Below, piece by piece: positions 1,590 to 62,611 of a stretch of DNA of 64,000 nt. This DNA is from a virus. Lineage: Duplodnaviria > Heunggongvirae > Uroviricota > Caudoviricetes. Made by a program: the position numbers and the translations under genes. The first letter of the stretch is position 1. Every line of letters starts with the position of its first letter. The stretch is taken from the IMG/VR virus record IMGVR_UViG_3300025087_000051; one strand, given 5' to 3'. The notes beneath the pieces are model-generated. The model ran no database searches and was not told the origin of the DNA. It saw nothing but the letters and a program-made list of their open reading frames with translations.

Positions 1590-2375
1590 ATGATGACAAG
1601 AGATAAAGTAAAGGAATATTTGTACAAAATCGGTGCAAATAGAAGCTGGAGCGTACTTCCGCATTCATCTATTTCGACCGTTGCCAACGGTGCTGGTTCA
1701 GTCGTTATTGTTACTCCGTCACGTTATGATTTTCTAGTAAAAGCCATATCGGGCAGAAGTACAGGATCATACCTGTTAAACTTTCTGGGCAGTGGGAAAT
1801 CTGAACTACTCAGTAATAAACCACTTCACAATTCTACCGTTATCGGCACTGGCAATCTTCCCTATCCGTTACCTTTTCCTATTATACTAAGAAGGAGCGG
1901 TAGCTTTGTAGTAGACGTTTCCGATCTTTCCGGTGCTGCTAATACTATTGAGATTCAGCTTCACGGAATAGCTCTTTATCAAGAAAAAGATACGGAATCG
2001 CTCATACAAAAATATTTAGGAATGATTCCTTATTTTTATACTACGGATTCTACCTTTGCGCTTACCACTGCCGATGCTACTAAAAATATTTCGCTTGTTA
2101 ATAGTCATGATTTTTTATGGACTCAGTGGACATATACAGATACAAACGCAACCACAACTATTGATATTAAATTACAAGCTACGGACGGAAGGACGTTGCA
2201 TCCACCAGACTTGTATATAGATTTACAAGCAGTTACAGGTGGCGCACAATATCCGAAGAAGTTGGAGCATCCAACACCACTATACGGAGGTAATACCTTT
2301 AGCGTTACGGCGAGAGATACGGCTGGTGCAAATACGCTATATCTTACTTTTGGTGGAATAGCATTGTATAAATAG
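1590..2375 (+). CDS. hypothetical protein
   Basis: 261-aa ORF in co-directional array, RBS-like AAAGGTGG upstream. Confidence 0.5.
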   Translation: MMTRDKVKEYLYKIGANRSWSVLPHSSISTVANGAGSVVIVTPSRYDFLVKAISGRSTGSYLLNFLGSGKSELLSNKPLHNSTVIGTGNLPYPLPFPIILRRSGSFVVDVSDLSGAANTIEIQLHGIALYQEKDTESLIQKYLGMIPYFYTTDSTFALTTADATKNISLVNSHDFLWTQWTYTDTNATTTIDIKLQATDGRTLHPPDLYIDLQAVTGGAQYPKKLEHPTPLYGGNTFSVTARDTAGANTLYLTFGGIALYK

Positions 2376-2495
2376 TATGGATAAAAATCTTCTTAAAAAA
2401 TCAGGCACAGTAGCGGTAATAATTATTTTCTGTCTAGTCGTTGGATGGTTCGGTATCGAACTTTCAGAAATATTGTATTGGAGGGTAGATTGATC

Positions 2496-3077
2496 ATGAA
2501 TAAATGTTTAAAACTTAAAAGCACACGGCATGATTTTTTTAATTTACCGGAAAACAAAATTCCGATAAATGAGTATGAAAAAGAAGTAGCTCTATCTAAA
2601 ACTGAATTGTATAAAGTTTTCGACATGGTGTTGAGAAAGAATGCGAAAACATTCACATCAAGAGAAAGCATATTTCTGGCGAATCAGCGTACATTTATTC
2701 AAACATCTGGCAAAATAACCGTTCCTATAGCTGTTGGCAGTGTTTATGGAACAGCAACAGTAATAGATTATACTTTGCCATTGAGGAGTGAAGGGTTTGT
2801 ACATGAGTTCGGTATTGGATATGTGACTCCGAACGGACAAGAAAAAATATTACTAAATTTCCTAGTCAATGATAAGATTGAACCAGGACTGTCCCAGCAA
2901 AGGTTTACTGAGTCTTTTGATACGCCACGACCTATAAAAATTCCACTGCCATCGAATAGTACCAATCTTAAAGTTATTGCATATAATATTGATGATGTAG
3001 CGCCATACGAAATCAAGGTTACAATGGTTGGATACTGGCAATATTTAGAATCTGATAAAGACCAACTAATCAAATAA
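2496..3077 (+). CDS. hypothetical protein
   Basis: ORF 2445-3077; GGAGGG RBS precedes internal ATG at 2496. Confidence 0.45.
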   Translation: MNKCLKLKSTRHDFFNLPENKIPINEYEKEVALSKTELYKVFDMVLRKNAKTFTSRESIFLANQRTFIQTSGKITVPIAVGSVYGTATVIDYTLPLRSEGFVHEFGIGYVTPNGQEKILLNFLVNDKIEPGLSQQRFTESFDTPRPIKIPLPSNSTNLKVIAYNIDDVAPYEIKVTMVGYWQYLESDKDQLIK

Positions 3078-3078
3078 C

Positions 3079-3804
3079 ATGAAAAAATATAAATTCTTAT
3101 CATATTTTTTTTTGTTTGTATCGTTCTTTGGGTTAATTCATGGTGTAAATGCTGAAATTGCTAAAACATTACTAGGCACAACCACGACCAATCCGACCGG
3201 AACATATACGTCCGCGCCAAAACCAACGACCGGTTATACCTGGTTTCGCGGACATATCATAACGGATGGTAGTAATGGGGCAGAAAATCAACCTACTGGA
3301 TATATTGAACAATCGCTCAATCCATCAGCGCCATTGAGTTATCACGGTACGAACACGATTACTTTTTCGAGGTCGGGACAGCTTTGGACAGGTTCGATAA
3401 ATTCTGCAATTATTGGACAATATGCAAGGCTGGTAATTGGTAATTTTGGCGATGCCTCGTTATTGGCTATTAACTGGTTCGTAACACCAGAAACGTCTGT
3501 CAGCACTACGTTAAATCTTACTACGACCCCAATTGCTTCGGGTACAGTGAAAACGGTAGGAATGTCAAGCATAACATTGATAGAAGCTAATACGAGTCGA
3601 AAGTATATACTAATAATTAATACGGGTAATCAAGATTTGTACGTAGACCCTGATAGTCCTGCTGATTCTAATACTGCACGCATATTCATTTCTGGTGGTA
3701 ATGGTTCGTATGAAAAAGAAAGCATGGCATCTATTTATACCGGTGCATTTTATTGCATAACGGCTACGGGAACAACAGAAGTGAGGGTATTTGAAAATAA
3801 TTAA
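3079..3804 (+). CDS. secreted protein with N-terminal signal peptide; paralog of 5231-6094 (tail-fibre/adhesin-like?)
   Basis: signal peptide MKKYKFLSYFFLFVSFFGLIHGVNA; shared motifs NPTGTYTS...YARLVIGNF with 5231-6094. Confidence 0.55.
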   Translation: MKKYKFLSYFFLFVSFFGLIHGVNAEIAKTLLGTTTTNPTGTYTSAPKPTTGYTWFRGHIITDGSNGAENQPTGYIEQSLNPSAPLSYHGTNTITFSRSGQLWTGSINSAIIGQYARLVIGNFGDASLLAINWFVTPETSVSTTLNLTTTPIASGTVKTVGMSSITLIEANTSRKYILIINTGNQDLYVDPDSPADSNTARIFISGGNGSYEKESMASIYTGAFYCITATGTTEVRVFENN

Positions 3805-4555
3805 AAAAATAATAAAAAAAGAAAACAAATTATTGATTCTTCTGGTTTGTCTTTTCTTGTTTTTGATAAGTAATCAAAATTTTGCCGGATATAACGTACC
3901 AAACAAACACGGAAGTCAATTATTTACTGAAACCGGCACTTTTATTGTACCTAGTGGCATTACGACCGTTTACGTAACAATGGTGGGGGCGGGCGGGGGT
4001 GGTGGGGGCGGCGCTGCCGGTAATACTGGAGGCACTACAGATACGGGCGGCGGAGGGGGAAGCAGTGGTGGTGCTTTTGTAAATCAACCATTGGTGGTAA
4101 CTGGTGGAAATTCTTATATAATAACTGTGGGTGTTGGTGGAATTGGCGGAAGCGGTGCAACCACTTCCCAGACCCAGGGTACTACCGCAAATGCTGGGGG
4201 TAATTCTTCCTTTTCGAGCTTGCTTGTTGCTGTCGGTGGTGGTGGTGGTGGGATGGGAAGATTAGACGCTGTTAGTTCTAGCAGTAGCGGAGGTATTAAT
4301 ACTGCTGGTGGTATATCTGGCAGTAATGGTAGTGGGTCAGCTACTATCGATGGTGCTCCAGGCCGTGATAGTTTGTTTGGAGATGGTAGCGTTGGCGGGT
4401 ATGGCGGGTATGAGAATGACGGACTAGACGGTACGGCAGTATCCATAACAAACACTTACGGCTCTGGCGGTGGGGGCGGAGGGGCTGCTCAATATCCATA
4501 TCTCGGTGGAGATGGCGCAGACGGCGCAGATGGCATGGTATTAATAACGTGGTGA
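3791..4555 (+). CDS. glycine-rich secreted protein (tail-fibre-like Gly-rich repeats)
   Basis: signal peptide/TM then long GGGGG / GGxGG tracts, GADGADG C-terminus. Confidence 0.55.
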   Translation: MKIIKKIIKKENKLLILLVCLFLFLISNQNFAGYNVPNKHGSQLFTETGTFIVPSGITTVYVTMVGAGGGGGGGAAGNTGGTTDTGGGGGSSGGAFVNQPLVVTGGNSYIITVGVGGIGGSGATTSQTQGTTANAGGNSSFSSLLVAVGGGGGGMGRLDAVSSSSSGGINTAGGISGSNGSGSATIDGAPGRDSLFGDGSVGGYGGYENDGLDGTAVSITNTYGSGGGGGGAAQYPYLGGDGADGADGMVLITW

Positions 4556-5217
4556 TGAATAAAAAAATGAAATATATCGAAAATTTTATTCTATTTTTCT
4601 TGGCATGGTTTTTTGTGTTAAACAGTAATTTTAACACAGCAGATGCCGCTATCGTTAAAATATATAAATTGAAAGATATAGATACAGAATCAGATAAAAG
4701 ATATTTCAATGGCGGTTTGTATTTTTATCGATCAGATACTGGTGATGTTGTCGGATTTACACTTGATTCTGATTATACTGGAAACAAAGGAATAGAAATA
4801 ACCGAAAGCGAATATTTGAATTATGTCGAATCGTTTCCATTAACTCATAAAAAAATTGAATTAACTATAAAACAAAAAAGAGCATTGGCTACCAATATTC
4901 TTATCTCAAAACAGAACAAAATATTTCTTTATTTTCTCGGTAAAGAAGTAGAAACGGCGGAAGAGGTTAGGAAAATTGCTAAGGAAAGAACCAGTGATTT
5001 ATTATCAGATAAATTAGAAAATAATGAATTGAATCTTATCATGTTATTATTTGCATATTCAGGCAAGGTTCAATTCAATCAGACCGGAATACAAGGAGTA
5101 AATTCACAACTTGAAGCGGATAACTACTTGACTAATTTTTACAACGATACGATTAAGAAAATAAACAATATAAAAAATCAGGCGAAACAATTCATACAAG
5201 ACAACAATTTGAATTAA
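4549..5217 (+). CDS. secreted hypothetical protein
   Basis: N-terminal hydrophobic signal FILFFLAWFFVLNSNFNTADA. Confidence 0.45.
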   Translation: MVMNKKMKYIENFILFFLAWFFVLNSNFNTADAAIVKIYKLKDIDTESDKRYFNGGLYFYRSDTGDVVGFTLDSDYTGNKGIEITESEYLNYVESFPLTHKKIELTIKQKRALATNILISKQNKIFLYFLGKEVETAEEVRKIAKERTSDLLSDKLENNELNLIMLLFAYSGKVQFNQTGIQGVNSQLEADNYLTNFYNDTIKKINNIKNQAKQFIQDNNLN

Positions 5218-5230
5218 AGGATATAATCAT

Positions 5231-6094
5231 ATGAAAAATATTATACAAAAGATATGCTATGCAATATTTATTTTCTACTTACCCGCTTCTTTTGTTTTTG
5301 CCAACAGTGTCCCAACCACTAGAAAAATCCTCGATGTCTCCGTAAACAGTCCAACCGGAACATATACAAGCGGTTCTTTCCCCTTACAAGACTATACAAG
5401 AATCAAAGGTGCGATAGTAATGGATAGTAGTTCTGACACTACGCCGATAGCTCATTTGAATCAAATCATTGCAACCGCTACAGCATTTTGGTTCGGTACT
5501 AATACGGTTTCATTTCATTACGATGGTACTTATTGGAAGGGCGAGGTTAATATTCCTGTTTTAGGCAAATATGCAAGATTAATCGTTGGAAATTTTAACA
5601 ATGCTACGAACTGGCAGTCATATTTGTACGTAACGAATGAATCAGGTGATAGATTTGTTGAAGCGCAACGAAGCGAAATCGTCAATAATGTAAGATTGAC
5701 CTATTTTGTAGATAAATATACAGACATATACGGAGTGGTTGTGGATCGTTTCAATTCCTATAATCTTGAGCCTGCTTCTGGATATGTCTATGACGATACG
5801 GGCGGGTCTGGTACATTGAGTGGAAGCGTGGCGATTCGAGGCTTCGATACAAATGAAATCTCAATCATAATTAATAGCATCGTTGACGGTACGGTCACGA
5901 TACGAATACAAGAACAAGTCGGATCAACAACGTTTTGGTCAAATGTTGCAGATATAGAACTTGGATCGGCAACGTCTTATTCACTTTCTTTGGACGAATC
6001 TCCTTGGAATGTAAGAATTGGATTGAATAAGACCGCAACTGGCATTGCTTCTGTGAGTATTATAGAATCGTATTCAACGAAAATTAATAACTGA
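5231..6094 (+). CDS. secreted protein, paralog of 3079-3804
   Basis: signal peptide; conserved SPTGTYTSG...KYARLIVGNFNNATNW blocks. Confidence 0.55.
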   Translation: MKNIIQKICYAIFIFYLPASFVFANSVPTTRKILDVSVNSPTGTYTSGSFPLQDYTRIKGAIVMDSSSDTTPIAHLNQIIATATAFWFGTNTVSFHYDGTYWKGEVNIPVLGKYARLIVGNFNNATNWQSYLYVTNESGDRFVEAQRSEIVNNVRLTYFVDKYTDIYGVVVDRFNSYNLEPASGYVYDDTGGSGTLSGSVAIRGFDTNEISIIINSIVDGTVTIRIQEQVGSTTFWSNVADIELGSATSYSLSLDESPWNVRIGLNKTATGIASVSIIESYSTKINN

Positions 6095-6111
6095 AACAAG
6101 AAAGAAATAAT

Positions 6112-7248
6112 ATGAAAAAAAAATATCTAATTATTGTCTTGGCGGTATTGGGATGCGCAGGATTGATGGGACTGGCCGCACCTGTTAAAATTGGACTAAA
6201 AGATATGTTTAATCCTGCTGGACGAATTAAATATCTCTGGTGGGATACGGGACAAAAAGATACTCGTGCTTCACTGCTTGCTGCCGCAGGTGGTGGCGAT
6301 GTTTCATATCCTATCGACATATCAGGAACGGAAACAACAGGTATCTTGCCTGAAAGTAAAGGCGGTTTCGGTACGAGTACGCCTGGTTATGTGCGACAAA
6401 ATAGCGGTAGCTCTACAACACAAACAGCCACAGATATTACAATAGCTGGAACTGGAACTGACACATCAACGATGAGGACAAACGGAGTCGATATATCCCC
6501 AACTGAAAAGAGCTATAGCGATGGCTTGACCGGTAATATCCAAACTCAAATCAACTCTAAGGTTGGTACGCAAAGTTTTTCTACAATTACAGGTTCAGTT
6601 ACGGCAAGTCAGCTACCTTCGGACGGTATTGTTGCACAAAACAATGGATCGTCCACGAACCAAACACTAACAAATGCAATATTGCAAGGTACAAATACTA
6701 CTTTTCCAACTAATGAAACAACCACAGGAACAAAAACAATAACTCTTGCCGCAGATTCAGATTTTCAAATAATGACGAATGGTGGTAAGTTCCGTGTGTC
6801 GGGAGATATTGTAGGTTCTAGCACGCCTCGGATGCTATTCAAAATATCATCTCCTGTTGTGCTTGGTACTACTACTACTGCTGCTACAATGGTTGGTTCG
6901 TGGACAATACCAGCAGGAACTATGGATATTGACAGTGGTATACAATTTTATTTAGGTGGAACAAATACAGCAAACAGTTCAGGACTCTTTAGAATCGATG
7001 TAGGCAGTCAAACAATATTTAATAATGGGATGACAACCAATGTATTTCTCAAGGAAATACCGTATTTTCAAAATACTGGAAGTACGTCTACAAATGTGTA
7101 TGGCCCGAATTTCCAATCATTTTTGTCTCCATCGCAAAGAATTTTTAGTTCAACGGTAAACACAGCAGTTGATTTAGAGGTATCAGTATGGTTGGCTGGG
7201 ACGGGAACTACTGTGTTGTCCTGGTTTAGGGCGGTGCTAGAGCCATGA
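6112..7248 (+). CDS. Thr/Ser-rich lipoprotein-like secreted protein
   Basis: MKKKYLIIVLAVLGCAG signal/lipobox-like; TS-rich repeats. Confidence 0.55.
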   Translation: MKKKYLIIVLAVLGCAGLMGLAAPVKIGLKDMFNPAGRIKYLWWDTGQKDTRASLLAAAGGGDVSYPIDISGTETTGILPESKGGFGTSTPGYVRQNSGSSTTQTATDITIAGTGTDTSTMRTNGVDISPTEKSYSDGLTGNIQTQINSKVGTQSFSTITGSVTASQLPSDGIVAQNNGSSTNQTLTNAILQGTNTTFPTNETTTGTKTITLAADSDFQIMTNGGKFRVSGDIVGSSTPRMLFKISSPVVLGTTTTAATMVGSWTIPAGTMDIDSGIQFYLGGTNTANSSGLFRIDVGSQTIFNNGMTTNVFLKEIPYFQNTGSTSTNVYGPNFQSFLSPSQRIFSSTVNTAVDLEVSVWLAGTGTTVLSWFRAVLEP

Positions 7249-9327: not shown

Positions 9328-9524
9328 GTAACAGATTTGTTTTTGATAAAGAATTTAAAGAAAAACTGAACGCTGTAAATGAAGCTGCACACAAATATTT
9401 TAAAATAAAAGCAGAATATGATGAAGCCACTGATAAATTACATTTACTCCTAGATAAACAAAAAGAAACCGATAAAGAATTATACCAACTTGTGAACTAC
9501 TCTAACCAATCAGAGATTGGATAG
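9324..9524 (+). CDS. hypothetical protein (3' end overlaps tnpB convergently)
   Basis: 66-aa ORF, start overlaps previous stop. Confidence 0.35.
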   Translation: MSNRFVFDKEFKEKLNAVNEAAHKYFKIKAEYDEATDKLHLLLDKQKETDKELYQLVNYSNQSEIG

Positions 9525-9640
9525 GGCTTCTTGGTTCTCAGGCAGCATCTGGCATAAGCTGCCTCCCCAAGCGTAACTTTCCGTAGTTCCTACGGTAGAT
9601 TTTTTTAGAATATTTAGTGAGGCATTGTGGTCTCTATCAA
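9440..9640 (-). ncRNA. putative omegaRNA/reRNA scaffold overlapping tnpB 3' end
   Basis: hairpins GGCAGC-11nt-GCTGCC and CCGTAG-GAA-CTACGG inside/after the last 35 codons of tnpB, the usual omegaRNA position; exact ends not determinable. Confidence 0.35.
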
Positions 9641-10670
9641 GAGTAGTACCACAAGCAAGACAAAAATGAATTCTATCTCTAAGTGTTTTCGGCACATGGT
9701 TGCCACAATGACTGCAATTTATGCTCGTGTGATGAGGCGCAACCTTCTCAAACTGAATACCAGCTTCTTCCGCTTTGTATTTCAGAAATCCGAGAAATTG
9801 TCCCCAACCAGCATCCGAAATGCTTTTGCTCAAGTGCCTATTTTTTACCATGCCTTTGATATTCAAATCTTCAACGGCAATAAAACCATAGATGTTTACA
9901 ATTTTGCGGGAAATCTTATGATGAAAATCAGACCTTTGATTTCTTATTTTGCAATGAAGTTTAGCAATCTTGATTCTTGCTTTTTTTCTGTTACGAGACC
10001 CTTTTTTCTTTTTAGAAAGCTGTCTTTGTTTAGAGACAAGTTTCTTTTCAGATTTACGAAGATATTTAGGGTTGTCTATAACTTTACCATCAGAAAGAAC
10101 AACAAAGGAGTGAATACCAACGTCAACACCAATAGCCTTATTGGGTATAGGCTTTGCGACAGGCTCGTATTCGACGGAAAAGCAGGCATACCATTTATCA
10201 ATCTCTCTTTTGATGGTGCAAGTCTTTATAATTCCAATAATGGGACGATGTATTTTTATTTTGACCGTTCCTATCTTGGAAAGCCTAAGACCTTGTTCTG
10301 TTATTTGAAATGCAGGTTCTTGTGGATAAGTAATGGAATCGTATCTGCCTTCATTTTTGAAACGTGGATAACCAACTTTTTCACCTGTTTTTATTCTGCG
10401 AAAGAAGCCCTGGAATGCTCTTTCAACTCTAAACAAAACATTTTGAAGAACTTGGGCATTAATATCATAGAGAAATCCCATCCTTTGTTTGTCGGATGTC
10501 AAAATCTTTTGTTGCTGTATTCTAGTAAGGCTTTTGCCCGATTGTTCATAGTTTCTTTTTCTATCAAACAGACAGGAATTGTAAAGGACTCGACATATTT
10601 CAAGAGTATGTTCAAGTACCTTCACTTGTTTTGTTGTAGGGTTTATTCTAAATTTGTAAGTTTTATGCAT
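9510..10670 (-). CDS. tnpB: TnpB (IS200/IS605 OrfB-family RNA-guided RuvC nuclease)
   Basis: RuvC-I GVDVGI, RuvC-II AVEDLNIKGM, zinc finger CSHCG...CLACG, RuvC-III RDHNASLNIL; N-terminal FRINPT...VLYN typical of TnpB. Confidence 0.9.
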   Translation of the reverse strand: MHKTYKFRINPTTKQVKVLEHTLEICRVLYNSCLFDRKRNYEQSGKSLTRIQQQKILTSDKQRMGFLYDINAQVLQNVLFRVERAFQGFFRRIKTGEKVGYPRFKNEGRYDSITYPQEPAFQITEQGLRLSKIGTVKIKIHRPIIGIIKTCTIKREIDKWYACFSVEYEPVAKPIPNKAIGVDVGIHSFVVLSDGKVIDNPKYLRKSEKKLVSKQRQLSKKKKGSRNRKKARIKIAKLHCKIRNQRSDFHHKISRKIVNIYGFIAVEDLNIKGMVKNRHLSKSISDAGWGQFLGFLKYKAEEAGIQFEKVAPHHTSINCSHCGNHVPKTLRDRIHFCLACGTTLDRDHNASLNILKKSTVGTTESYAWGGSLCQMLPENQEALSNL

Positions 10671-10671
10671 C

Positions 10672-10791
10672 TATTTTTTTCTGTTCCAATAAGGACTTTT
10701 ACATTTAGGGCAAATAACAACCTCAGACTTTCTTGGTGTCCATAGATGTTTGCATCTTTCACAGGCAAGTTTAATAATTTTAATTTTCATA
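10672..10791 (-). CDS. zinc-ribbon micro-ORF immediately upstream of and abutting tnpB
   Basis: 39-aa MKIKIIKLACERCKHLWTPRKSEVVICPKCKSPYWNRKK, CxxC...CxxC; stop abuts tnpB ATG (coordinates approximate to 1-2 nt). Confidence 0.3.
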
Positions 10792-56159: not shown

Positions 56160-56578
56160 TATTGAAAAAACTAAAAGGAAAAATAATAAAATTGGTGTTG
56201 GTTAGCTTTGTGTGTTTGAATACTTATTCCTCATTTGCTCTTAATGAAATTACAGAAAAAAAATATAAAACATTCGATGGAAAAATATTTAATAAGAAGG
56301 AAGACGCCCTGCTCCATGAAAAAATCCAGAAAAATGTCAACCTGCTTATGGAAATATTCAAAGAGGATACAGAAGCCGCTCTACAGCAAAAAGAACACGA
56401 TATGGATCACGACTTGAGATTGTATCTCTGGGGACACCGTCCTTATCGCTTAGACGAATACGAAGAAGAATATAGAAGTCATTTCTATAAATATTTTAAA
56501 ATATTAGAAGAAAAAGGAATCGAAATAGAAATCACACTTAAAAAAGATTATGGAACTTTTACAGTAAATAAAAAATAA
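56156..56578 (+). CDS. secreted hypothetical protein
   Basis: Met at 56156 followed by signal-like LVLVSFVCLNTYSSFA. Confidence 0.4.
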   Translation: MILKKLKGKIIKLVLVSFVCLNTYSSFALNEITEKKYKTFDGKIFNKKEDALLHEKIQKNVNLLMEIFKEDTEAALQQKEHDMDHDLRLYLWGHRPYRLDEYEEEYRSHFYKYFKILEEKGIEIEITLKKDYGTFTVNKK

Positions 56579-56601
56579 AACAAGAAATAGGAGAAAATAA
56601 T

Positions 56602-56823
56602 ATGATATTAAACGAATCGAGTATGTTAAAAAACTTTAAAGGCAAAACGAGAAATATGAAAAATATATTGGATTGTCTTTATGTTGATATATGTACTGCA
56701 ACACCGTCACCGAATGATATTCACGATCTAGACAAAGAAAAGAAAGAACTGTTAAGACGTATCAAAAAATTAGAAAAAGAAATTTTATCTTTAAAAAATA
56801 AAAAAATCAAACGAAACATCTAG
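56602..56823 (+). CDS. coiled-coil small protein
   Basis: AGGAGAA RBS; followed by CGCAG-GTTTT-CTGCG hairpin. Confidence 0.35.
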   Translation: MILNESSMLKNFKGKTRNMKNILDCLYVDICTATPSPNDIHDLDKEKKELLRRIKKLEKEILSLKNKKIKRNI

Positions 56824-56930
56824 TCTAAGTGTTTCGTTATCGATCCGCAGCGTTTTTCCCGTATCGCAGGTTTTCTGCGGGTCGAAACTTTAGAAATTTA
56901 ATCTAAAAAAATTCACTACATCAATATATT

Positions 56931-58868
56931 ATGAATTACGATAATTTTCTTACTCATAAAAAACAGCAAGGATCTAATCATGGATTTGATCCTACATTTG
57001 TTCCAGATTATTTGTTTGATTTTCAAAAAAGTTTGGTTGAATGGGCTGTAAATAAGGGTCGTAGTGCTATATTTTCTGATTGCGGCACAGGAAAAACTAT
57101 TATGGAGCTTGTGTGGGCATACAACATAGTAAGAAAAACAAACAAAAATGTATTGATATTATCACCGCTGGCCGTCTCTTGGCAAACCGCAAAAGAAGCG
57201 GAAAAATTTGGAATTGAATGTAAGGTATCAAGGGATGGTAAAATTAACAGCAAAATAACAATTACCAATTATGAACAATTACATAAGTTTGAACCGTCTG
57301 ATTTTGTCGGTATTGTATGTGATGAGAGTGGAATATTAAAATCGTTTAAAGGTGCATTAAGAAAAGAAATAACAATATTCATGCGTAAAATTGAATATAG
57401 ATTATTAGCTACGGCAACGCCAGCTCCGAACGATTATATTGAATTGGGAACTTCGTCTGAAGCCTTGGGATATCTAGGTGCAATGGATATGTTAAATAAA
57501 TTTTTCAAAAACGATCAACACAATAGCAAAGTGGGAAGATATAGAGGACAAGAAGTTAAATGGAGATTGAAAGGTCATGCAGAATTACCTTTTTGGAGAT
57601 GGATATGTTCTTGGGCTAAAGCAATGAGAAAACCATCTGATTTAGGTTTTGACGATAATGGATTTATATTGCCAGAATTAATAATTAATCAAACCGTTGT
57701 AAAATCTAATAGTCTTCCTAAGGGTAAATTATTTTCTATGCCAGCGATAACACTACAAGAACAAAGAGAAGAAAGAAGAAGAACTATAATGGAAAGATGT
57801 GAGATGGTCGCCAGCAAGGTCAATACTGGTAAACAAGCATTGGTTTGGTGTCATTTAAACGACGAAGGAGACTTGTTAGAAGCACTTATTCCTAATTCAA
57901 TACAAGTAAAAGGGTCTGATTCTGTTGAATGGAAAGAAGCAGCGGCTGAATGGTTCGTTGGAAATAAATGTATTTGCAATGATAATATGTTTCGTGCTAA
58001 ACTTTTAGCATGGAAAAGAGAAAAACAAATCTTGAATACCATCGCCGATACTATCAAGAACATCGAGAGGAACGATTGCGTCAATCCATCGAATACCAGC
58101 GAGCACATAAAGTTGAACGAAAATCTTATCTATCAGAATATTACAAACACAACAGGGGGAAATGGGTGCGGACACAAAAACAAAAGGATGAAAGAAATAG
58201 AAGACGACGAGAGCGATATGCAAATGACGAAAAATTTCGTCTCGCTAAAATTGAAGAATCAAAAGAAACAAGAAGAAAAAACCCAGACACTCGGCTCAAA
58301 TATTGTCTTAAAAAATATGGTGTGTCCATCGAAGAATATCGAAAACTTGAATCAAAAGGATGCGCAATCTGCGGAAGAAAAGAAAACGGAGATATTCGAG
58401 GACACCGATTCCACATCGATCACTCCCACGATACTGGAAAATTCAGAGGGGTACTGTGTACAGGATGCAATCAAGGACTCGGAAAGTTTGGTGACGACCC
58501 TAAACGGCTCGAAAATGCCGCCATGTATCTGCGGGCATAAGACAGGACGTCGCATCCTCATAAGCAAGCCTGTCATGTTTGGGTATGGCTTAAATTTCCA
58601 ATGCTGTAATTATATGGTTTTATTCCCTTCCCATAGTTACGAACAATATTATCAAGTAATCCGCCGGTGTTGGCGTTTCGGACAAAAAAATCCAGTAACA
58701 GTAGATATTATAACAACGGAAGGGGAGTCAAGAATTATAAACAATTTACAAAGAAAATCTAAACAAGCTGATGAAATGTTTGAAAGATTAATTAGCGAAA
58801 TGAATCATGTGTTAAATATAAATCGAATGGAAGAATATTCACAAAAAATAATACTTCCTAATTTCTAA
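56931..58868 (+). CDS. SNF2-family helicase carrying an in-frame 555-nt insertion that encodes an HNH endonuclease in another frame
   Basis: motif I SDCGTGKT, II CDESG, III LLATATPAPND, V RILISKPVMFGYGLNF, VI QVIRRCWRFGQ; middle 185 codons low-complexity. Confidence 0.7.
   Translation: MNYDNFLTHKKQQGSNHGFDPTFVPDYLFDFQKSLVEWAVNKGRSAIFSDCGTGKTIMELVWAYNIVRKTNKNVLILSPLAVSWQTAKEAEKFGIECKVSRDGKINSKITITNYEQLHKFEPSDFVGIVCDESGILKSFKGALRKEITIFMRKIEYRLLATATPAPNDYIELGTSSEALGYLGAMDMLNKFFKNDQHNSKVGRYRGQEVKWRLKGHAELPFWRWICSWAKAMRKPSDLGFDDNGFILPELIINQTVVKSNSLPKGKLFSMPAITLQEQREERRRTIMERCEMVASKVNTGKQALVWCHLNDEGDLLEALIPNSIQVKGSDSVEWKEAAAEWFVGNKCICNDNMFRAKLLAWKREKQILNTIADTIKNIERNDCVNPSNTSEHIKLNENLIYQNITNTTGGNGCGHKNKRMKEIEDDESDMQMTKNFVSLKLKNQKKQEEKTQTLGSNIVLKNMVCPSKNIENLNQKDAQSAEEKKTEIFEDTDSTSITPTILENSEGYCVQDAIKDSESLVTTLNGSKMPPCICGHKTGRRILISKPVMFGYGLNFQCCNYMVLFPSHSYEQYYQVIRRCWRFGQKNPVTVDIITTEGESRIINNLQRKSKQADEMFERLISEMNHVLNINRMEEYSQKIILPNF
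57978..58532 (+). mobile_element. inserted segment carrying HNH gene, bounded by 9-bp direct repeat TGTATTTGC / TGTATCTGC
   Basis: 555 nt (3 x 185) purine-rich, GC-richer than flanks; removal restores ...GNKCIC-GHKTGRRILIS... SNF2 motif IV-V spacing. Confidence 0.6.
58010..58540 (+). CDS. HNH homing-type endonuclease
   Basis: CAICGRKENGDIRGHRFHIDHSHDTGKFRGVLCTGCNQGLGKF. Confidence 0.75.
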   Translation: MEKRKTNLEYHRRYYQEHREERLRQSIEYQRAHKVERKSYLSEYYKHNRGKWVRTQKQKDERNRRRRERYANDEKFRLAKIEESKETRRKNPDTRLKYCLKKYGVSIEEYRKLESKGCAICGRKENGDIRGHRFHIDHSHDTGKFRGVLCTGCNQGLGKFGDDPKRLENAAMYLRA

Positions 58869-58889
58869 ACAATAGAGGAGGTCAGGATC

Positions 58890-59903
58890 GTGACAGTTAA
58901 AGATCAGGTAATAACAAGTAATTATGCAATATACAATGGAGATGCTGTAGAAGTATTAAAAACACTACAAAGCAATTCTATTCACTTCTCTGTATACTCT
59001 CCTCCGTTTGCTACTGGCGGTGGCGGGCTTTATACTTATTCAAGCCACGAAAGAGACCTTTCTAATTGCGATAGTTACGAACAATTTTTTGAACATTACG
59101 CTTTTGTCGTAGAAGAAATAGCAAGATTAACATTACCTGGAAGATGTTCTGTCGTGCATTGTATGGATGTGCCGAAAAGTAATTCCGGTAATGATCTATT
59201 GAGGGATTTTCCAGGAGATATAATCAGATTACACGAAAAATATGGATTTGGATATGCGGCAAGACACTGTATTTGGAAAGAACCATTAGGGGTAAGATTG
59301 AGAACTATGCAAAAAAATTTAGCGCACAAAACATTAGTAGAAGATTCTATTGCATGTGGAGTGGCATCTGCTGACTACTTGTTAGTTTTTACGAAAAAAG
59401 GCAAGAATCAAATACCCATATCTCACCCAACCGGATTAAGTAATTATGCTGGAGAAAAGCCAATACCTTCCAACATATTACAATACAAGGGATATACTGG
59501 TAAACAGACAGAAAATTCATACTCGCATTGGATGTGGCGACAATACGCTTCTTCTATGTGGGACGATATAAGACTTGAAAGAACATTGCCATATAAAGAA
59601 GCAAGAGACAGCGAAGACGAAAAACACGTACATCCATTACAATTAGATGTTATTGAAAGATGCGTTGTTTTAAGGTCTAATATAGACGAAGTCGTGTTGA
59701 CACCATTTATGGGAGTTGGAAGCGAATGTTATGGTGCTATTATTAATGGCAGAAAAGCCATAGGAATCGAATTGAAACCATCTTATTACAGACAAGCCGT
59801 TAAAAATATGGAATTAGCTAAAAACGAAAAAACATTACAGAAAAAACTATTCAACGAAAACAATACCTTACTATCATTGATGAGTGAGGAAAAATCGGAA
59901 TAA
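58890..59903 (+). CDS. beta-class N6-adenine/N4-cytosine DNA methyltransferase
   Basis: motif IV SPPF (FSVYSPPFATGG) N-terminal, motif I FMGVGSE C-terminal; GAGGAGG RBS. Confidence 0.8.
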   Translation: MTVKDQVITSNYAIYNGDAVEVLKTLQSNSIHFSVYSPPFATGGGGLYTYSSHERDLSNCDSYEQFFEHYAFVVEEIARLTLPGRCSVVHCMDVPKSNSGNDLLRDFPGDIIRLHEKYGFGYAARHCIWKEPLGVRLRTMQKNLAHKTLVEDSIACGVASADYLLVFTKKGKNQIPISHPTGLSNYAGEKPIPSNILQYKGYTGKQTENSYSHWMWRQYASSMWDDIRLERTLPYKEARDSEDEKHVHPLQLDVIERCVVLRSNIDEVVLTPFMGVGSECYGAIINGRKAIGIELKPSYYRQAVKNMELAKNEKTLQKKLFNENNTLLSLMSEEKSE

Positions 59904-59905
59904 TA

Positions 59906-62611
59906 ATGGAAATCTCGAACAAAATCCCATTTTCTAATCCTAAATTTAAAAAAGGATTAACACCGCTACAGCACAAAACCGTCACGGACGTGCTATCAAG
60001 CAGAAAAACAATAACGATGATTAATGCTCCCACCGGATTCGGGAAGACTCCGACAGCTATGACCCTTGCCCACCATATAAACTACCCGAACCAATCTCTA
60101 TATCTTTGTAGTTCTAAAATTTTACAAGATCAATTGGCTGGGGATTTTACAGAAGCGTATCAATTAAAAGGGCGGGGAAATTATCCGTGCACACTTCTAC
60201 CCACCTATAATGCAGACCGATGCTTCCAACAATGCGATGAATATAAGTGCGGTGAAATTTCATGCGCTTATGAAGATGCGAAAAAAGAAGCCTTATCATC
60301 AACTTTTACCATTCTCAACATGCACTATTACGAGACCGAAACGAATTTTGTCGGTAGATTTTCAAAGCGTAAAACCGTAATAATTGACGAGGCAGATGTA
60401 TTAGAAGATATTTTGATAGATTTTATCGCACTAGACGTCCATCCGAAAACATTGGAAAAATTCAAGCTGGATCAGCCCAAATATGTGACTAAGTTAGATT
60501 CATGGAAGGAATGGGCGGATAAAACATTAAAAATATTAGAAGAAAAAGTTAAAAAGCTAAGAGCCGCCGAAGACCACTTGGATAGAGAATCAAAATTAGA
60601 ACTAAGTAAATTGTTGAGAATGTGTCTGAAATTAAATATGCTAAAAAACGATATAACGGAAGAGTGGATATTCGACCATGCCGAAAAATTTCGCTTTCAA
60701 CCTCTCTGGCTAGACACAAAACTTACCCAACAATATTTACTCAAACATGCGGAAAGATTCGTTATGATGTCTGCGACCATGCTCCCGAAAGTTATAGCGT
60801 GTAAATTATTGGGATTAGATATTAACGATGTGGATTATCACGAGATAGATTCACCTATACCCGTAGCGAATCGTCCCATTGTTTATAAGCCAATTAAAAA
60901 GCTAAAATACGGTGAATCAGAAGAAGATGTTTATAATGAAATTAAAAGATTGATAGAAGGGTACAAAGGAATTAAAGGGATTATTCATGCTGTGAGCTAT
61001 ACCCGTGCAAAGGCAATAGCAGGACTGGACAAGCGTTGCATCACTCATAATACCTACGATAAAAACGAAAAAATAAAACAATTCATAGACTCAAAAGATG
61101 GGATATTGGTAAGCCCATCGTGTGATCGTGGACTTGACCTGCACGGCGATCTAGCAAGATTCTGTATAATTCCAAAAGTTCCGTTCCCGAACACAACGGA
61201 CAAGGTGGTCTCCAAGCGTTTGTACAGCTCTCCCTTTGGTAGGGTATGGTACAGGGCTGTAACGGCGCAAACCATTGTTCAGATGGCGGGGCGTACTACT
61301 CGATGTTTTAGCACAGACACAGAAATCTTAACGATACATGGATGGAAAAAATACAACGAAGTAAATATGCACGATAAAACTTATTGTATTGATCAGAAAT
61401 CTTTTAACAATAAAACTAAACGTCCAGTTATGGAGGGTTCTTCGATATTAGTAGAAGGAGAAATAGAGGATGTCTATACATCAGATAAAGAAGAAAAAGT
61501 TATTAATATTAAAAATCAAAACATTGATGCTTTAGTTACTCAAGACCACGACATGATTGTTCAAATGAGAAAACAGAAAACTTATAGGGGGAAGTATAAA
61601 AAACCTTATGGAGTTTATGATTGGAAATACTGTCATCGTACAAATAGTCATGGATTAGAAAAAATAAAAGCATCTAAATTACCAGACAGATTTAAAATAC
61701 CACTAGCAGGAAAAATTATACGCAAAAACAAATCTCGTGCTAAAAAAGAATGGTTCTGGCTGATAGGTTTCATAATAGGGGATGGACATATTCATAAAAA
61801 CAAAAACGTCGTAACAATACATCAATCGGAAACCAACATAGACTTAATAGAAAAAATCAGAAAAGTTCTTGGTATACTTAAAATAGAATATTCAGAATAC
61901 AGACGACAAGTAAAAGGAACAAAAATAAATTTAAACGATAAGGAGTATTCAAGAAAAGAAGATATGATAAATTTTCAAATAACGGGTAAGTCTTCTTCGA
62001 TGATTAGGGATATGTTTAATAATGGCAAAAGAAGAAGGTATTCAAAAACAGTAACATACGTACAAAGAACTCACTTTTCTTTTAGTAAAAAAATAGGGGG
62101 AAAGCATAAAATAGATGGGTGGAAAGAAGTGGAAAAAATCATACCAAGATGGTGTCTGGAGAAGGGGTCGAAATCCCAACTTATTAAATTAATTCATGGT
62201 TTGGTTGACAGCGACGGAAGCTGGAAAAAAACTAATGGTAAATATAATAAAAACGTTGGAGGTTTTTACAACAAAAATAAAATCATAATAGATGCTTTTC
62301 AGGAGTTGTGCGTATTGACAGGATATAGAAGTTTGATTCGTAACAGAAGGAATCAATACGAAGTTTCCTTTTGTTGTCCCTCCATGATTGACTGTACGAA
62401 AAATAATGATGTAAAAGACGGAGGGATGTCTAAGGTGTGGTGTGTTAAAACAAATCATGGAAATGTTATAATGAGGAGAAATGGTAAACCTTTTTTGTGT
62501 GGAAACAGTGCCAGCGACTTTTCCACTGTTCATATACTGGACGCTGCTTTTGATTCGGTCGTAGAATTTGTCCCGAAATGGTTTCGAGATGCAATCAAGG
62601 TTGAATTTTAG
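59906..62611 (+). CDS. DinG/Rad3(XPD)-family FeS helicase interrupted by a LAGLIDADG intein in motif VI
   Basis: motif I NAPTGFGKT, four-Cys FeS cluster, DEAD box, motif VI QMAGRTTR | intein | SASDFSTVHILDAAF. Confidence 0.8.
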   Translation: MEISNKIPFSNPKFKKGLTPLQHKTVTDVLSSRKTITMINAPTGFGKTPTAMTLAHHINYPNQSLYLCSSKILQDQLAGDFTEAYQLKGRGNYPCTLLPTYNADRCFQQCDEYKCGEISCAYEDAKKEALSSTFTILNMHYYETETNFVGRFSKRKTVIIDEADVLEDILIDFIALDVHPKTLEKFKLDQPKYVTKLDSWKEWADKTLKILEEKVKKLRAAEDHLDRESKLELSKLLRMCLKLNMLKNDITEEWIFDHAEKFRFQPLWLDTKLTQQYLLKHAERFVMMSATMLPKVIACKLLGLDINDVDYHEIDSPIPVANRPIVYKPIKKLKYGESEEDVYNEIKRLIEGYKGIKGIIHAVSYTRAKAIAGLDKRCITHNTYDKNEKIKQFIDSKDGILVSPSCDRGLDLHGDLARFCIIPKVPFPNTTDKVVSKRLYSSPFGRVWYRAVTAQTIVQMAGRTTRCFSTDTEILTIHGWKKYNEVNMHDKTYCIDQKSFNNKTKRPVMEGSSILVEGEIEDVYTSDKEEKVINIKNQNIDALVTQDHDMIVQMRKQKTYRGKYKKPYGVYDWKYCHRTNSHGLEKIKASKLPDRFKIPLAGKIIRKNKSRAKKEWFWLIGFIIGDGHIHKNKNVVTIHQSETNIDLIEKIRKVLGILKIEYSEYRRQVKGTKINLNDKEYSRKEDMINFQITGKSSSMIRDMFNNGKRRRYSKTVTYVQRTHFSFSKKIGGKHKIDGWKEVEKIIPRWCLEKGSKSQLIKLIHGLVDSDGSWKKTNGKYNKNVGGFYNKNKIIIDAFQELCVLTGYRSLIRNRRNQYEVSFCCPSMIDCTKNNDVKDGGMSKVWCVKTNHGNVIMRRNGKPFLCGNSASDFSTVHILDAAFDSVVEFVPKWFRDAIKVEF
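61304..62506 (+). other. intein (401 aa) with LAGLIDADG homing endonuclease
   Basis: begins CFSTDTEILT; LIGFIIGDGHI and LVDSDGSW motifs; ends NGKPFLCGN then +1 Ser. Confidence 0.75.

Follow-up and report, generated by a model that had tools for sequence, protein, structure and literature searches.

The common view is that a homing endonuclease located within a gene requires an intron or an intein to spare its host, and in coding genes these endonucleases usually ride in group I introns. A different kind of insertion is represented by the Rickettsia palindromic elements, which Ogata and colleagues are said to have reported in 2000 as selfish DNA lying in frame in protein-coding genes. The locus described here is found in the window, by which we mean the whole 64,000-nt stretch of viral DNA that was analyzed (Caudoviricetes; IMG/VR record IMGVR_UViG_3300025087_000051). 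It resembles these elements in that a selfish insertion would be tolerated by being translated, which would add an exposed surface peptide to the host protein. The Rickettsia elements differ in that they are short, palindromic, non-coding repeats; they bring no gene and involve no dual coding.

Among the closest described systems is the ShiLan domain (Arsenault, Gosselin and Gogarten, Genes 2025, PMC11855218), in which a "hidden" HNH gene lies out of frame within the DNA methylase genes of actinophages. Like ShiLan, the window cassette lodges an HNH gene in a conserved phage gene of DNA metabolism; the two genes share a strand but not a reading frame. Both have a stop-free host frame, no intron or intein signature, a predicted host-frame loop and the patchy distribution expected of a homing element. 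A Shine-Dalgarno sequence is missing from both, leaderless initiation having been suggested for ShiLan (PMC11855218), and both inserts open with sequence similar to the beginning of the downstream flank. The hosts differ: ShiLan occupies the methylase, which is the neighboring gene here, whereas the window cassette occupies the helicase. By its published description, the ShiLan endonuclease combines HNHc with zinc fingers in 195 aa and begins at a GTG 18 bp into the insert, while that of the window belongs to Endonuclease_7 (PF02945) and begins at an ATG 38 nt into the insert. The ShiLan work concerned a handful of mycobacteriophages; the present comparison covers 54 distinct copies at two sites and in two frames, and adds a quantitative stop-avoidance test, a -10-like signal at fixed spacing and mapped co-conversion-like tracts.

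Another example is gp60 of the Mycobacterium phage Pacc40 (PMC11855218), whose N-terminal domain is homologous to the window helicase (30% identity to P0003, an insert-free relative of the latter). It too contains an out-of-frame endonuclease-like ORF, an open host frame and Cys-rich flanks (CRCLCHGD...AQCPCDTGY). It differs in using a third insertion site, inside the PSDLGxDDxGYxLP motif, and in that its host is a helicase-methylase fusion which also carries an intein. The nested ORF of Pacc40 has no similarity to the window HNH and no Pfam match.

Two further systems share part of this organization. In Aeromonas phage Aeh1, nrdA is split by mobE, a case of genes-in-pieces arising from a free-standing homing endonuclease (PMC3045599, PMC2988022). 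As in the window, a free-standing HNH gene lies directly in a coding sequence, with no intron or intein and with host function retained; however, the Aeh1 host gene is split into two ORFs whose products reassemble, whereas the window helicase is a single continuous ORF. Intein-borne Endo VII-like endonucleases belong to the same superfamily as the window HNH and are likewise encoded in a shifted frame within sequence that is translated in the host frame. They are accompanied by true splicing domains and remove themselves, whereas the window cassette has no such domains and its peptide is apparently retained.

With insert-free homologs, an open host frame, a nested endonuclease ORF and no splicing features, the window cassette fits among the ShiLan-type hidden insertions. 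This membership is by mechanism only, because the nested endonuclease has no similarity to the Pacc40 ORF and ShiLan was compared by description. The initial annotation, made from the window sequence, implied that the arrangement is unique; it recurs in dozens of phages and prophages, and the principle is not new, having appeared in print in 2025 with a phage methylase and Pacc40 gp60 as its examples (PMC11855218). The window cassette adds a new and large member to a kind that is known but has hardly been studied.

Host Helicase and Nested Endonuclease

The locus comprises the following genes and insertion.

56931-58868, plus strand: SNF2-like superfamily-2 helicase, 645-aa read-through ORF including the insertion (ORF listing, Pfam, PHROG, AF2/Foldseek)
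57972-58550, plus strand: inserted cassette of about 579 bp, 193 host-frame codons (ICNDN...CICGHKTGR), absent from insert-free relatives
58010-58540, plus strand: homing endonuclease gene of HNH / Endonuclease VII type, encoding 176 aa at offset 2 from the host frame and closing with TAA at 58538-58540
58890-59903, plus strand: N6/N4 DNA methyltransferase, conserved downstream partner of the helicase (PF01555, E=2e-16)

The 645-aa ORF originally proposed at 56931-58868 is present, and the accompanying claim that a foreign HNH gene lies out of frame within an SNF2-like helicase gene was borne out. The host protein passes the Pfam cutoff for ResIII (E=4e-5; 24 bits against 22.5), stays under that for SNF2-rel_dom (21 bits against 24.9) and matches a PHROG DNA helicase. 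A Foldseek search with its AF2 model returned Chd1, BRG1, CSB, Rad54, ISWI and RapA as the best PDB matches (probability 1.0, E down to 5e-11), both RecA-like lobes being SNF2 ATPase-like. Helicase motifs I-VI are invariant across the 21 insert-bearing and 20 insert-free homologs compared, and in every relative those located 3′ of the insert remain intact and in frame. Synteny or fusion of helicase and methylase also occurs in S-H1, in Flavobacterium, Mycobacterium and Gordonia phages, and in metagenomic loci. The next helicase gene carries a LAGLIDADG intein that is readily found by Pfam, providing a positive control for the intein search.

The HNH gene at 58010-58540 is complete, as first described, and matches Pfam Endonuclease_7 (PF02945, E=3e-19; 69.1 bits against a curated cutoff of 23.6) and PHROG endonuclease VII families (E=6e-25). 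It keeps the zinc-binding Cys pairs and the catalytic D-H..H..N: residues C118, C121, D137, H138, H140, C150, C153 and N154 are invariant in the family alignment and all present in the window HNH. Among nested cassettes, diversity by codon position in the HNH frame is highest at position 3, lower at position 1 and lowest at position 2, and protein identity is 0.46 in the HNH frame, 0.244 in the host frame and 0.248 in the third frame. Judged by these patterns, the HNH frame is under purifying selection. Only this frame is conserved as protein, the host-frame sequence being no more conserved than that of the non-coding frame.

Our preferred reading, to which we assign a probability of about 0.8, is that a homing cassette is translated through as a loop of the helicase while the HNH protein is made separately from its own internal start. 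An Endonuclease VII/HNH cassette would have invaded a loop of the second RecA-like lobe, between "WFxG.." and "RxLISKP", and would stay in both the RNA and the protein, with ribosomes crossing the insert in a frame other than that of the endonuclease. Read-through would add about 193 mostly polar, disordered residues looping out of an otherwise intact helicase, and selection would hold the host frame stop-free while otherwise leaving its sequence unconserved. Apparently, an uninterrupted helicase frame across the cassette is what allows it to be tolerated. The endonuclease would be made from the internal ATG at 58010, most likely off a leaderless transcript started by a TGnTAAACT element 6 nt upstream. 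It presumably cuts insert-free helicase alleles in co-infection, and repair would then copy in the cassette together with about 90 bp and 120 bp of helicase flanks.

Extent of the Cassette

The inserted segment is missing from phage homologs of about 450 aa. It is absent from P0003/L173, S-H1 and Flavobacterium phages, P0003/L173 being 82-91% identical to the window helicase and yet insert-free. The insert-free junction in P0003 reads ...FCAGEF/RVLVTKP..., the slash marking the point of insertion, and the putative target region in the insert-free L173 helicase allele lies around ...TTTTGTGCTGGAGAATTTAGAGTGTTAGTAACTAAACC.... Two insertion sites are used in the helicase, at approximately aa 340-348 and 297-304 of P0003.

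The cassette was first described as an exact insertion of 555 bp whose deletion would be seamless. Alignment to the closest insert-free relatives gives instead about 193 codons, or 579 bp (approximately 57972-58550), with edges that are ambiguous by a few nt. The earlier right boundary at 58532 excludes the HNH stop codon (58538-58540), and about eight cassette-derived residues (..ICGHKTGR) would remain after the proposed deletion. The insert is indeed richer in G+C, as had been noted, at 0.404 against 0.340 and 0.278 in the flanking parts of the helicase. The HNH ORF takes up 531 of the roughly 579 nt, with about 38 nt upstream and 10 nt downstream lying outside it. Host-frame peptides encoded by the insert include NIENLNQK and TEIFEDTDSTSITPTILENSEGYCVQDAIK. 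The host-frame translation has no Pfam match at E<=0.1, and it is predicted to be mostly disordered (AF2 pLDDT of 25-35 for residues 384-528, against 80-95 in the helicase core).

One relative, P0002 (430 aa, 100% identical), ends inside the insert and was considered as a natural variant with a broken frame. It lies at the very end of a 78,560-nt contig and is uninformative, because its last residues stem from the assembly break.

Search for Intron and Intein Signatures

The insert might be cut from the RNA, either through self-splicing of a degenerate or novel intron or through host or phage RNA processing, an idea favored by the role of group I introns as the usual carriers of homing endonuclease genes in coding genes. 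The similarity between the start of the ShiLan insert and its downstream flank has also been discussed as intron-like (PMC11855218). Yet an Rfam scan found no intron family (group I or II) even at E<=10, and the HNH ORF leaves only about 48 nt of the insert free, too little for a ribozyme core. Moreover, efficient splicing would remove selection for an open frame, so that the open host frame in 54/54 distinct relatives, in two different frames, argues against it. The initial annotation had already discounted a group I intron, and RNA-level removal of any kind is very unlikely.

Removal at the protein level would involve an atypical intein-like reaction through the flanking Cys residues, or proteolysis followed by religation. 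The insert starts at a Cys and is followed by a Cys-containing motif, these Cys residues are conserved at the protein level, and inteins also need an open frame. Nevertheless, Pfam matched no intein or Hint domain in the insert, while the true intein in the neighboring gene was detected. The insert ends in ...KTGR or ...MPP rather than in His-Asn, and the identity of the host-frame amino acids equals that of the non-coding frame. The AF2 model of the insert peptide contains one helix and about 145 disordered residues with no Hint fold, the roughly 17 residues not overlapped by the HNH ORF are too few for splicing blocks, and site-A relatives lacking CxC exist. The earlier statement that the insert is not an intein agrees with these results, and we give protein-level removal the same slim chance as removal from the RNA.

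An Open Host Frame Across the Family

Between 57960 and 58560 there is no stop in the helicase frame, against 13 in the third frame. The same is seen in the family at large, in which 54 distinct related cassettes occupy homologous helicases; they use two sites, and their frame relative to the helicase can be either +1 or +2. None of the 54 has a host-frame stop, and the remaining frame averages 7.1 and 6.0 stops. Permutation of synonymous codons leads one to expect 2.5 host-frame stops per sequence and about 10/54 sequences free of stops by chance; the joint log10 P for the stop-free frames is about -73 when the 54 related sequences are treated as independent. For the window alone, the probability of the open frame is 5e-5 under the codon usage of the window and 0.06 under that of the HNH gene itself. 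The 71 free-standing relatives that served as a control have 3.85 (+1) and 9.08 (+2) stops per 100 codons, and 0/71 are stop-free in +1. These sequence comparisons show the open host frame to be kept by selection, termination inside the insert evidently being harmful.

Such selection argues against the unknown removal mechanism that the initial annotation put forward as one of two alternatives, and which is not needed. It may still be compatible with partial removal after translation. The other alternative, a translated junk insertion, is favored by the 54/54 stop-free relatives and by a host-frame sequence that is unconserved.

The open frame could in principle be a by-product of the purine-rich HNH composition, with the helicase a decaying pseudogene. 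The window's open-frame probability of about 0.06 with HNH codon usage points in this direction, as does a polar host-frame peptide whose composition is what the HNH codons predict. However, the open frame switches between +1 and +2 with the frame of the helicase, free-standing relatives have stops in both frames, and no relative has lost the motifs 3′ of the insert or their frame, which makes this explanation scarcely credible. A signal for a polar or disordered host-frame peptide beyond stop avoidance was weak (mean z -0.66), the hydrophobic fraction being 0.169 observed against 0.173 expected under synonymous permutation. The polarity of the host frame is mostly a by-product of the basic HNH sequence.

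The Junction Repeat and Two Cysteine Pairs

Two short motifs lie near the ends of the insert.

57969-57977, plus strand: first CxC, read in the host frame as Cys-Ile-Cys and located 5′ of the HNH ORF; kept as C-x-C by 14-17 site-A relatives
58524-58532, plus strand: second CxC in the host frame; it results from reading in +1 the codons aTG TAy CTG c, which specify M-Y-L at the HNH C terminus

The corresponding DNA was initially taken for a 9-bp direct repeat resembling a target-site duplication. In fact, TGTATTTGC and TGTATCTGC agree at only 8/9 positions, the pair was not reported by a repeat finder with a 7-nt seed, and an equally good match arises in 5% of shuffles of the two 40-nt junction windows. 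The second copy falls within the HNH ORF, in the conserved C-terminal AAMYLR. In homologs, the first CxC uses the synonymous codons TGT and TGC at 7:7, with the Cys kept and the middle residue varying (I/L/V/D). Because it is conserved at the protein level, with both copies maintained as Cys codons, the repeat is not a target-site duplication.

These near-identical 9-nt strings at both insert ends would also suit a ribosomal bypass of the T4 gene 60 type, with take-off at the first Cys-Ile-Cys and landing at the second copy. In T4, a mobile endonuclease cassette is linked to the 50-nt bypass (10.1101/2022.08.31.505936), a precedent that lends the idea some appeal. Here, however, the proposed take-off site is not followed by a stop, the frame being open all the way. 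In many relatives the two copies do not share the middle codon (for example CVC...CIC, CIC...CTC), some have no CxC, and a hop of 555 nt would be an order of magnitude above the 50-nt gap of T4 gene 60. Bypass would abolish selection for openness, and thus the 54 stop-free relatives argue against it as well; we regard it as extremely improbable.

Under the preferred reading, in which the loop is translated and kept, the Cys pairs could have a structural role. The first and second CxC always occur together in site-A relatives, none having one without the other when truncated windows are allowed for, and AF2 places both with good scores (pLDDT 82-90 at the first, about 81 at the second). In a subclade that includes the window, the two pairs at the base of the loop may bind metal and pin its ends together. 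Such a clasp is not required for tolerance, because some site-A relatives are without any CxC pair. Excision of the loop by a non-Hint reaction of the Cys pairs is unlikely.

Proposed Expression of the Endonuclease

A candidate promoter lies immediately upstream of the HNH start.

57994-58003, plus strand: GTGCTAAACT, TGn + TAAACT resembling an extended -10 element, with exactly 6 nt between it and the HNH ATG

The motif GTGCTAAACTGGCAGC is found in 30/57 distinct nested cassettes, 23 of these 30 having it exactly 6 nt from the ATG, and its TAAACT core is nearly invariant. A similar arrangement, TGnTAnnAT/TACTAT-N6-ATG, is seen in the free-standing relatives L098, L064 and L138. The start codon is ATG in 56 of the 57 distinct nested copies, and a Shine-Dalgarno-like sequence was found in none of the 57. 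TGnTAAACT-N6-ATG probably drives a leaderless HNH transcript. The motif, which also encodes the conserved host-frame peptide AKLAA, could instead be a binding or recognition site and not a promoter. Promoters in the putative Bacteroidota-like host of this AT-rich phage may also depart from the sigma-70 type. If true, a leaderless start would make expression of the HNH independent of translation of the host gene and portable across bacterial phyla. A hairpin is present around the HNH start in the window; considered as a start-site feature, it was rejected, as it is not conserved among relatives.

Probable Mobility and Distribution

Comparison of the window with L173, in which the two flanks were aligned separately, delimits a putative tract of imported sequence on either side of the cassette.

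57881-57971, plus strand: candidate upstream co-conversion tract; identity to L173 DNA drops from 80-88% to 60/60/33%
58551-58670, plus strand: candidate downstream co-conversion tract; identity to L173 DNA 47-70%

On the upstream side, helicase residues 321-346 are 32% identical to P0003 and 65-85% identical to insert-bearing homologs that are otherwise distant. Beyond the downstream tract, identity to L173 DNA returns to 100% at 58671-58700 and is 87% further on; G+C is 0.392 within this tract against 0.278 farther downstream. Both tracts look like helicase sequence imported along with the cassette, in the manner of co-conversion. One nested copy (L067) resides in a 1488-aa non-helicase ORF, for which no Pfam match and only PHROGs of unknown function were found.

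The cassette might also have been domesticated, with its nuclease, its loop or the two together working for the helicase-methylase module, for instance in anti-defense or DNA processing. Its persistence across 40-60% protein divergence with the catalytic motif intact, its spread over Actinobacteria, Proteobacteria and AT-rich phages, its constant association with the helicase-methylase module and its conserved host-frame Cys pairs are all in keeping with such a role. Its distribution among close relatives is patchy, however, with P0003/L173 insert-free at 82-91% identity, and its flanks resemble co-conversion tracts. Within this one gene the cassette occupies at least two sites and two frames, the host-frame sequence is unconserved, and free-standing copies adjoin insert-free helicases (L057). 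Domestication is accordingly an improbable account, less so than removal from RNA or protein.

Implications for Homing Endonucleases in Phage Genes

Nested nucleases of this type are easily overlooked. The Gordonia phages Malisha (gp71) and Squiddly (gp64), for instance, have the cassette at site B, and their annotation reads simply "DNA helicase" and overlooks the nuclease. These are cultured phages, with Gordonia terrae 3612 as host, and read-through, leaderless expression and homing are directly testable for that reason.

We tentatively raise the possibility, doubtful as it is, that homing endonucleases have a dedicated third lifestyle in essential genes, beside introns and inteins, with adaptations of its own. 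One such adaptation could be a coding sequence that is stop-free in whichever frame the host uses. Another could be a built-in extended -10 promoter, by which the endonuclease mRNA begins at its own AUG. In one lineage, as sequence and structural model would suggest, a four-cysteine clasp (CxC...CxC) could structurally "splice out" the 190-residue loop with no chemistry.

The out-of-frame strategy turns out to be widespread in this family of SNF2-like helicases. The helicase-nested cassettes provide the strongest comparative evidence so far for a third solution, in which the insertion is translated through as a loop and the nuclease is encoded in the other frame. This evidence extends over dozens of independent sequences, two sites, two frames, and hosts from Actinobacteria to Proteobacteria, and it bears on overlapping genes and on how much insertion proteins tolerate.

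An endonuclease gene nested in a helicase gene

The initial annotation had placed an HNH endonuclease gene in another frame inside a helicase gene. This nesting is confirmed by the features below and by an open helicase frame:

56931-58868, helicase ORF of 645 aa, matching PHROG DNA-helicase families and, solely across its first ~170 residues, ResIII/DEAD/SNF2-type Pfam profiles
58010-58540, same strand, offset by 2 nt, HNH ORF of 176 aa, matching Pfam Endonuclease_7 (PF02945, His-Me/HNH-type nucleases) at E=3e-19
~57972-58550, insert of ~193 codons (579 bp), ends uncertain by a few nt

Across 57960-58560 there are no stops in the helicase frame and 13 in the third, and the HNH frame stays open starting at 58010. 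The middle segment is missing from the ~450-aa homologs of cultured phages, including Synechococcus S-H1, Flavobacterium phages and Mycobacterium Cheoctoviruses, in all of which, as in the window, a DNA methylase follows the helicase. The extent of the insert was set by alignment to the closest insert-free relatives, which read ...F-x-x-G-x-x/R-[VI]-L-[IV]-[ST]-K-P... at the native junction. P0003, a 453-aa helicase encoded on the related phage contig L173, has ...LSFCAGEF/RVLVTKP..., and the window has ...EWFVGNKC[ICNDN...PPCICGHKTGR]RILISKP.... This alignment, suggested earlier as a check, shows the insertion to be real and redraws its junction. The ~579-bp insert takes in the entire HNH gene with its stop (58538-58540), which the exact 555-bp interval first proposed (57978-58532) leaves out; the initial annotation was therefore right about the nesting and wrong about the boundary, as about the repeat discussed below.

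Upstream of the helicase start, the intergenic stretch 56809-56900 holds short inverted repeats (AACGAAACA...TGTTTCGTT and CCGCAG...CTGCGG), where a terminator scan called none. Elsewhere in the window, ORFs of 386 aa (9510-10670, minus strand) and 372 aa (9627-10745, plus strand) overlap almost fully.

A family of nested cassettes

Searching proteins with the 645-aa sequence supplied the first set of relatives: many insert-free homologs of 450-468 aa, and over 20 longer proteins (620-720 aa, 100% query coverage, 47-54% identity) in whose DNA a homologous HNH ORF lies in another frame. A search with an alignment of these HNH proteins then yielded 160 metagenomic and IMG/VR loci, plus 15 in bacterial genomes. 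Related nested genes occur in other genomes: in ~75 loci a full-length HNH relative lies within a homolog of the window helicase (54 distinct HNH coding sequences), at two sites. The host frame, that of the helicase, is offset from the HNH frame by +1 or +2:

Site A (that of the window), between WFxG and RxLISKP, host frame HNH+1
Site B, first form, directly ahead of the W[LVI]IWCxLNxEQ motif, host frame HNH+1
Site B, second form, directly ahead of the same motif, host frame HNH+2

Cultured carriers are the Gordonia phages Malisha (gp71) and Squiddly (gp64), annotated merely as 'DNA helicase', and prophage copies are found in Rhizobium, Mesorhizobium and Dactylosporangium genomes and several MAGs. 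This SEA-PHAGES label covers a 620-aa read-through product in Malisha (OP434458; 1485-3344 of the extracted locus L170), as also in Squiddly (MN096370); the nested 176-aa Endonuclease VII gene (L170 2396-2926) is unannotated.

Other arrangements were also observed. On a 150-kb contig (L067), a 1488-aa ORF (1949-6412) hosts a nested Endonuclease_7 relative (3387-3854), across which the host frame (HNH+2) is open. This ORF has no helicase similarity and no Pfam match, and its PHROG matches are only to families of unknown function; the read-through lifestyle may therefore extend beyond this helicase. In locus L057 a full-length HNH relative (862-1491) with the GTAAACTGGCAGC-ATG signal of the nested cassettes lies directly 3' of an insert-free helicase. 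Its +1 frame is still open end to end, within a 210-aa ORF stopping just past the HNH gene. This copy may be a cassette that was recently cut out or moved, or one that inserted into the beginning of the following gene. The helicase ORF continues for at least 900 aa in many relatives (e.g. L017 112-2919, L026 2332-5124, L029 2555-5347, L047 2543-5263), apparently because the DNA methylase that follows is fused to it, an arrangement also seen in Pacc40 gp60 and S-CBS3. Helicase and methylase act as one module and are sometimes a single polypeptide.

Reading frames under selection

Host-frame stops are absent from all 54 distinct nested copies, and the remaining frame averages 7.1 stops where the host frame is +1 and 6.0 where it is +2. 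Because the open frame switches along with the host frame, it is no by-product of composition. Permuting synonymous codons within each HNH gene, a conservative null that keeps the gene's own biased usage, gives an expectation of 2.5 host-frame stops per sequence and ~10 of 54 sequences stop-free; the joint log10 probability that all are stop-free is about -73 when these related sequences are treated as independent. For the window alone, the probability of zero stops is 5e-5 under window-wide codon usage and 0.06 with the HNH gene's own codons; each of its NTR codons precedes a codon beginning with a pyrimidine, so that no TAA, TAG or TGA arises in the +1 frame. Free-standing relatives (71 distinct) have 3.85 (+1) and 9.08 (+2) stops per 100 codons. 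All of them have stops in +1, and the only one lacking stops in +2 is a nested copy located at the edge of its contig.

The endonuclease itself is under ordinary purifying selection, since nucleotide diversity tracks its codon positions (0.63 at the third, 0.44 at the first, 0.39 at the second) and amino-acid identity in its frame is 0.46. Identity in the host frame (0.244) cannot be distinguished from that in the non-coding third frame (0.248), and the host-frame peptide is constrained only against termination. The helicase is still under selection in carriers, because its motifs on either side of the insert are invariant across 21 insert-bearing and 20 insert-free proteins. Such a frame pattern is expected when ribosomes making the helicase continue across the insert, and unexpected with removal from the mRNA or skipping.

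Alternatives to read-through and the predicted structure

The initial annotation had dismissed an intein and a group I intron, and both judgments hold. An Rfam scan of 56500-59500 returned no intron family at E<=10, and the HNH ORF takes up all but ~48 nt of the insert, so an intron is rejected. Pfam profiles gave no match to the host-frame peptide at E<=0.1 and readily picked up the LAGLIDADG intein of the next helicase gene, a positive control; an intein is likewise rejected. Ribosome bypass is contradicted by three things: the frame is open, no stop follows the putative take-off site, and there are relatives in which the two Cys-x-Cys (CxC) motifs differ or are missing.

In an AlphaFold2 model built from a 41-sequence alignment, two RecA-like lobes (pLDDT 80-95) find their best PDB matches among the SNF2 ATPases Chd1, BRG1, CSB, Rad54 and RapA. 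Insert residues 384-528 have pLDDT 25-35, low values that also speak against an intein, and the ends are better modelled (pLDDT ~81-90), namely the first ~35 residues (CIC and a long helix) and the last ~10 (PPCICGH). The insert is best regarded as a mobile cassette that is translated through as part of the helicase (probability about 0.8). Of the interpretations first offered, a junk loop is favoured, a removal mechanism is not needed and a target-site duplication fails.

That duplication rested on a 9-bp direct repeat at the insert ends. The copies agree at 8 of 9 positions, the repeat was not reported by a repeat finder with a 7-nt seed, and shuffling the junction windows gives an equally good match 5% of the time. 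The second copy is the +1-frame reading of the C-terminal M-Y-L codons of the HNH gene (aTG TAy CTG c, giving Cys, Ile/Thr, Cys), and the first varies synonymously in relatives (TGT:TGC = 7:7) with Cys-x-Cys kept at the protein level. The site-A subclade that includes the window has one CxC just within either insert end. Since the first stands outside the HNH ORF and its Cys residues are kept despite codon variation, selection on the translated host frame is indicated there.

The pairs always co-occur (both in 14-17 site-A relatives, neither in ~7, one alone in 0), and both regions are modelled with high confidence. The four Cys at the loop base could bind zinc and hold the insert ends together, a candidate clasp that is speculative and, on balance, doubtful. 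Because some site-A relatives have no CxC, the pairs are not needed for tolerance of the insert.

Proposed expression of the endonuclease

Alignment of cassette 5' ends uncovered a conserved motif, GTGCTAAACTGGCAGC, directly 5' of the HNH ATG. Scored as present at >=11/16 positions, it is found in 30 of 57 distinct nested copies and in ~3.6% of random windows. Its TAAACT core is almost invariant, with TG one base 5':

57994-58003, TGnTAAACT motif of the window, followed by the ATG at 58010

This sequence resembles an extended -10-type element and is a candidate promoter. It could instead be a protein-binding site. TAAACT and the ATG are exactly 6 nt apart in 23 of the 30 motif-bearing copies, and in certain copies the motif is 15-30 nt away from the ATG. 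At six bases the A of the ATG would fall at the usual transcription start, and a leaderless mRNA would result. Synthesis of the endonuclease from such an mRNA is a hypothesis held with slight preference. It fits the lack of any Shine-Dalgarno-like sequence before the ATG of nested copies, the use of ATG in 56 of 57 and the same architecture, with other hexamers, in intergenic free-standing relatives (L098, TGATAAAAT-N6-ATG; L064, TGCTAGAAT-N6-ATG; L138, TGTTACTAT-N6-ATG). Leaderless initiation has also been suggested for the ShiLan element (PMC11855218).

Signs of horizontal movement and a neighboring intein

The window helicase and the insert-free P0003 are 82-91% identical over residues 1-320 and 92% over 576-600, and identity falls to 32% at residues 321-346 and 44-57% at 531-575. 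Within both of these segments the window helicase shares 65-85% identity with insert-bearing helicases whose identity to it elsewhere is just 50-70%. The relevant features are:

57881-57970, upstream tract of low DNA identity to L173
58551-58670, downstream divergent tract, then 100% identity at 58671-58700
59906-62611, DEAD/Helicase_C_2 (XPD/DinG-like) helicase, two genes downstream of the SNF2-like helicase
~61304-62506, LAGLIDADG intein of ~401 aa in that gene (GRTTR/CFSTDTEILT...FLCGN/SASDF)

The cassette with both tracts has a G+C content of 0.37-0.40 against 0.34 and 0.28 in the surrounding gene, bearing out the G+C-richer insert noted initially. Judged from these sequence comparisons, the cassette appears to have been imported with donor flanks of ~90 bp and ~120 bp, the signature of homing with co-conversion. 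L173 encodes the same DEAD/Helicase_C_2 gene (86% identity, 501 aa) without the intein. The window thus has two different selfish elements in two helicase genes 1 kb apart, neither in L173, and both are polymorphic between the two phages. In another assembly, apparently of the same phage (ENA contig ANAN16-1 scaffold_779, 78,560 nt), the sequence breaks within the HNH cassette at the locus end, so that the protein database lists an artefactual 'truncated helicase' of 430 aa. Sequences with and without the insert may have been mixed in that sample and caused the break, or it may be only the end of a permuted contig.

Relation to known systems

Rickettsia palindromic elements are translated within host proteins. 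Other precedents are the genes-in-pieces created by mobE (PMC3045599) and the T4 gene 60 bypass cassette (10.1101/2022.08.31.505936). Closest is the ShiLan domain of actinophage DNA methylases, described in February 2025, in which an out-of-frame HNH gene lies in an open host frame, splicing signatures are absent and a loop is predicted; Pacc40 gp60, in the same paper, is a different insertion following the same principle (PMC11855218). The window element is therefore a further member of a recently described kind, although its endonuclease family and host site differ, and none of the papers searched describes an Endonuclease VII cassette in this helicase.

Pacc40 gp60 (NC_011287; 5102-9127 of the extracted locus L171, insert ~5866-6342) carries the RefSeq annotation 'anaerobic ribonucleoside reductase large subunit', and its N-terminal domain is a homolog of the window helicase. 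Its unrelated insertion occupies a third site, within the PSDLGxDDxGYxLP motif, where CxC pairs again flank the nested ORF in the host frame (CRCLCHGD...AQCPCDTGY). What is added here is a large family, a quantitative demonstration that an open host frame is maintained whichever its phase, and candidates for an expression signal and a clasp. The principle was already known, yet this family is unusually clean and testable.
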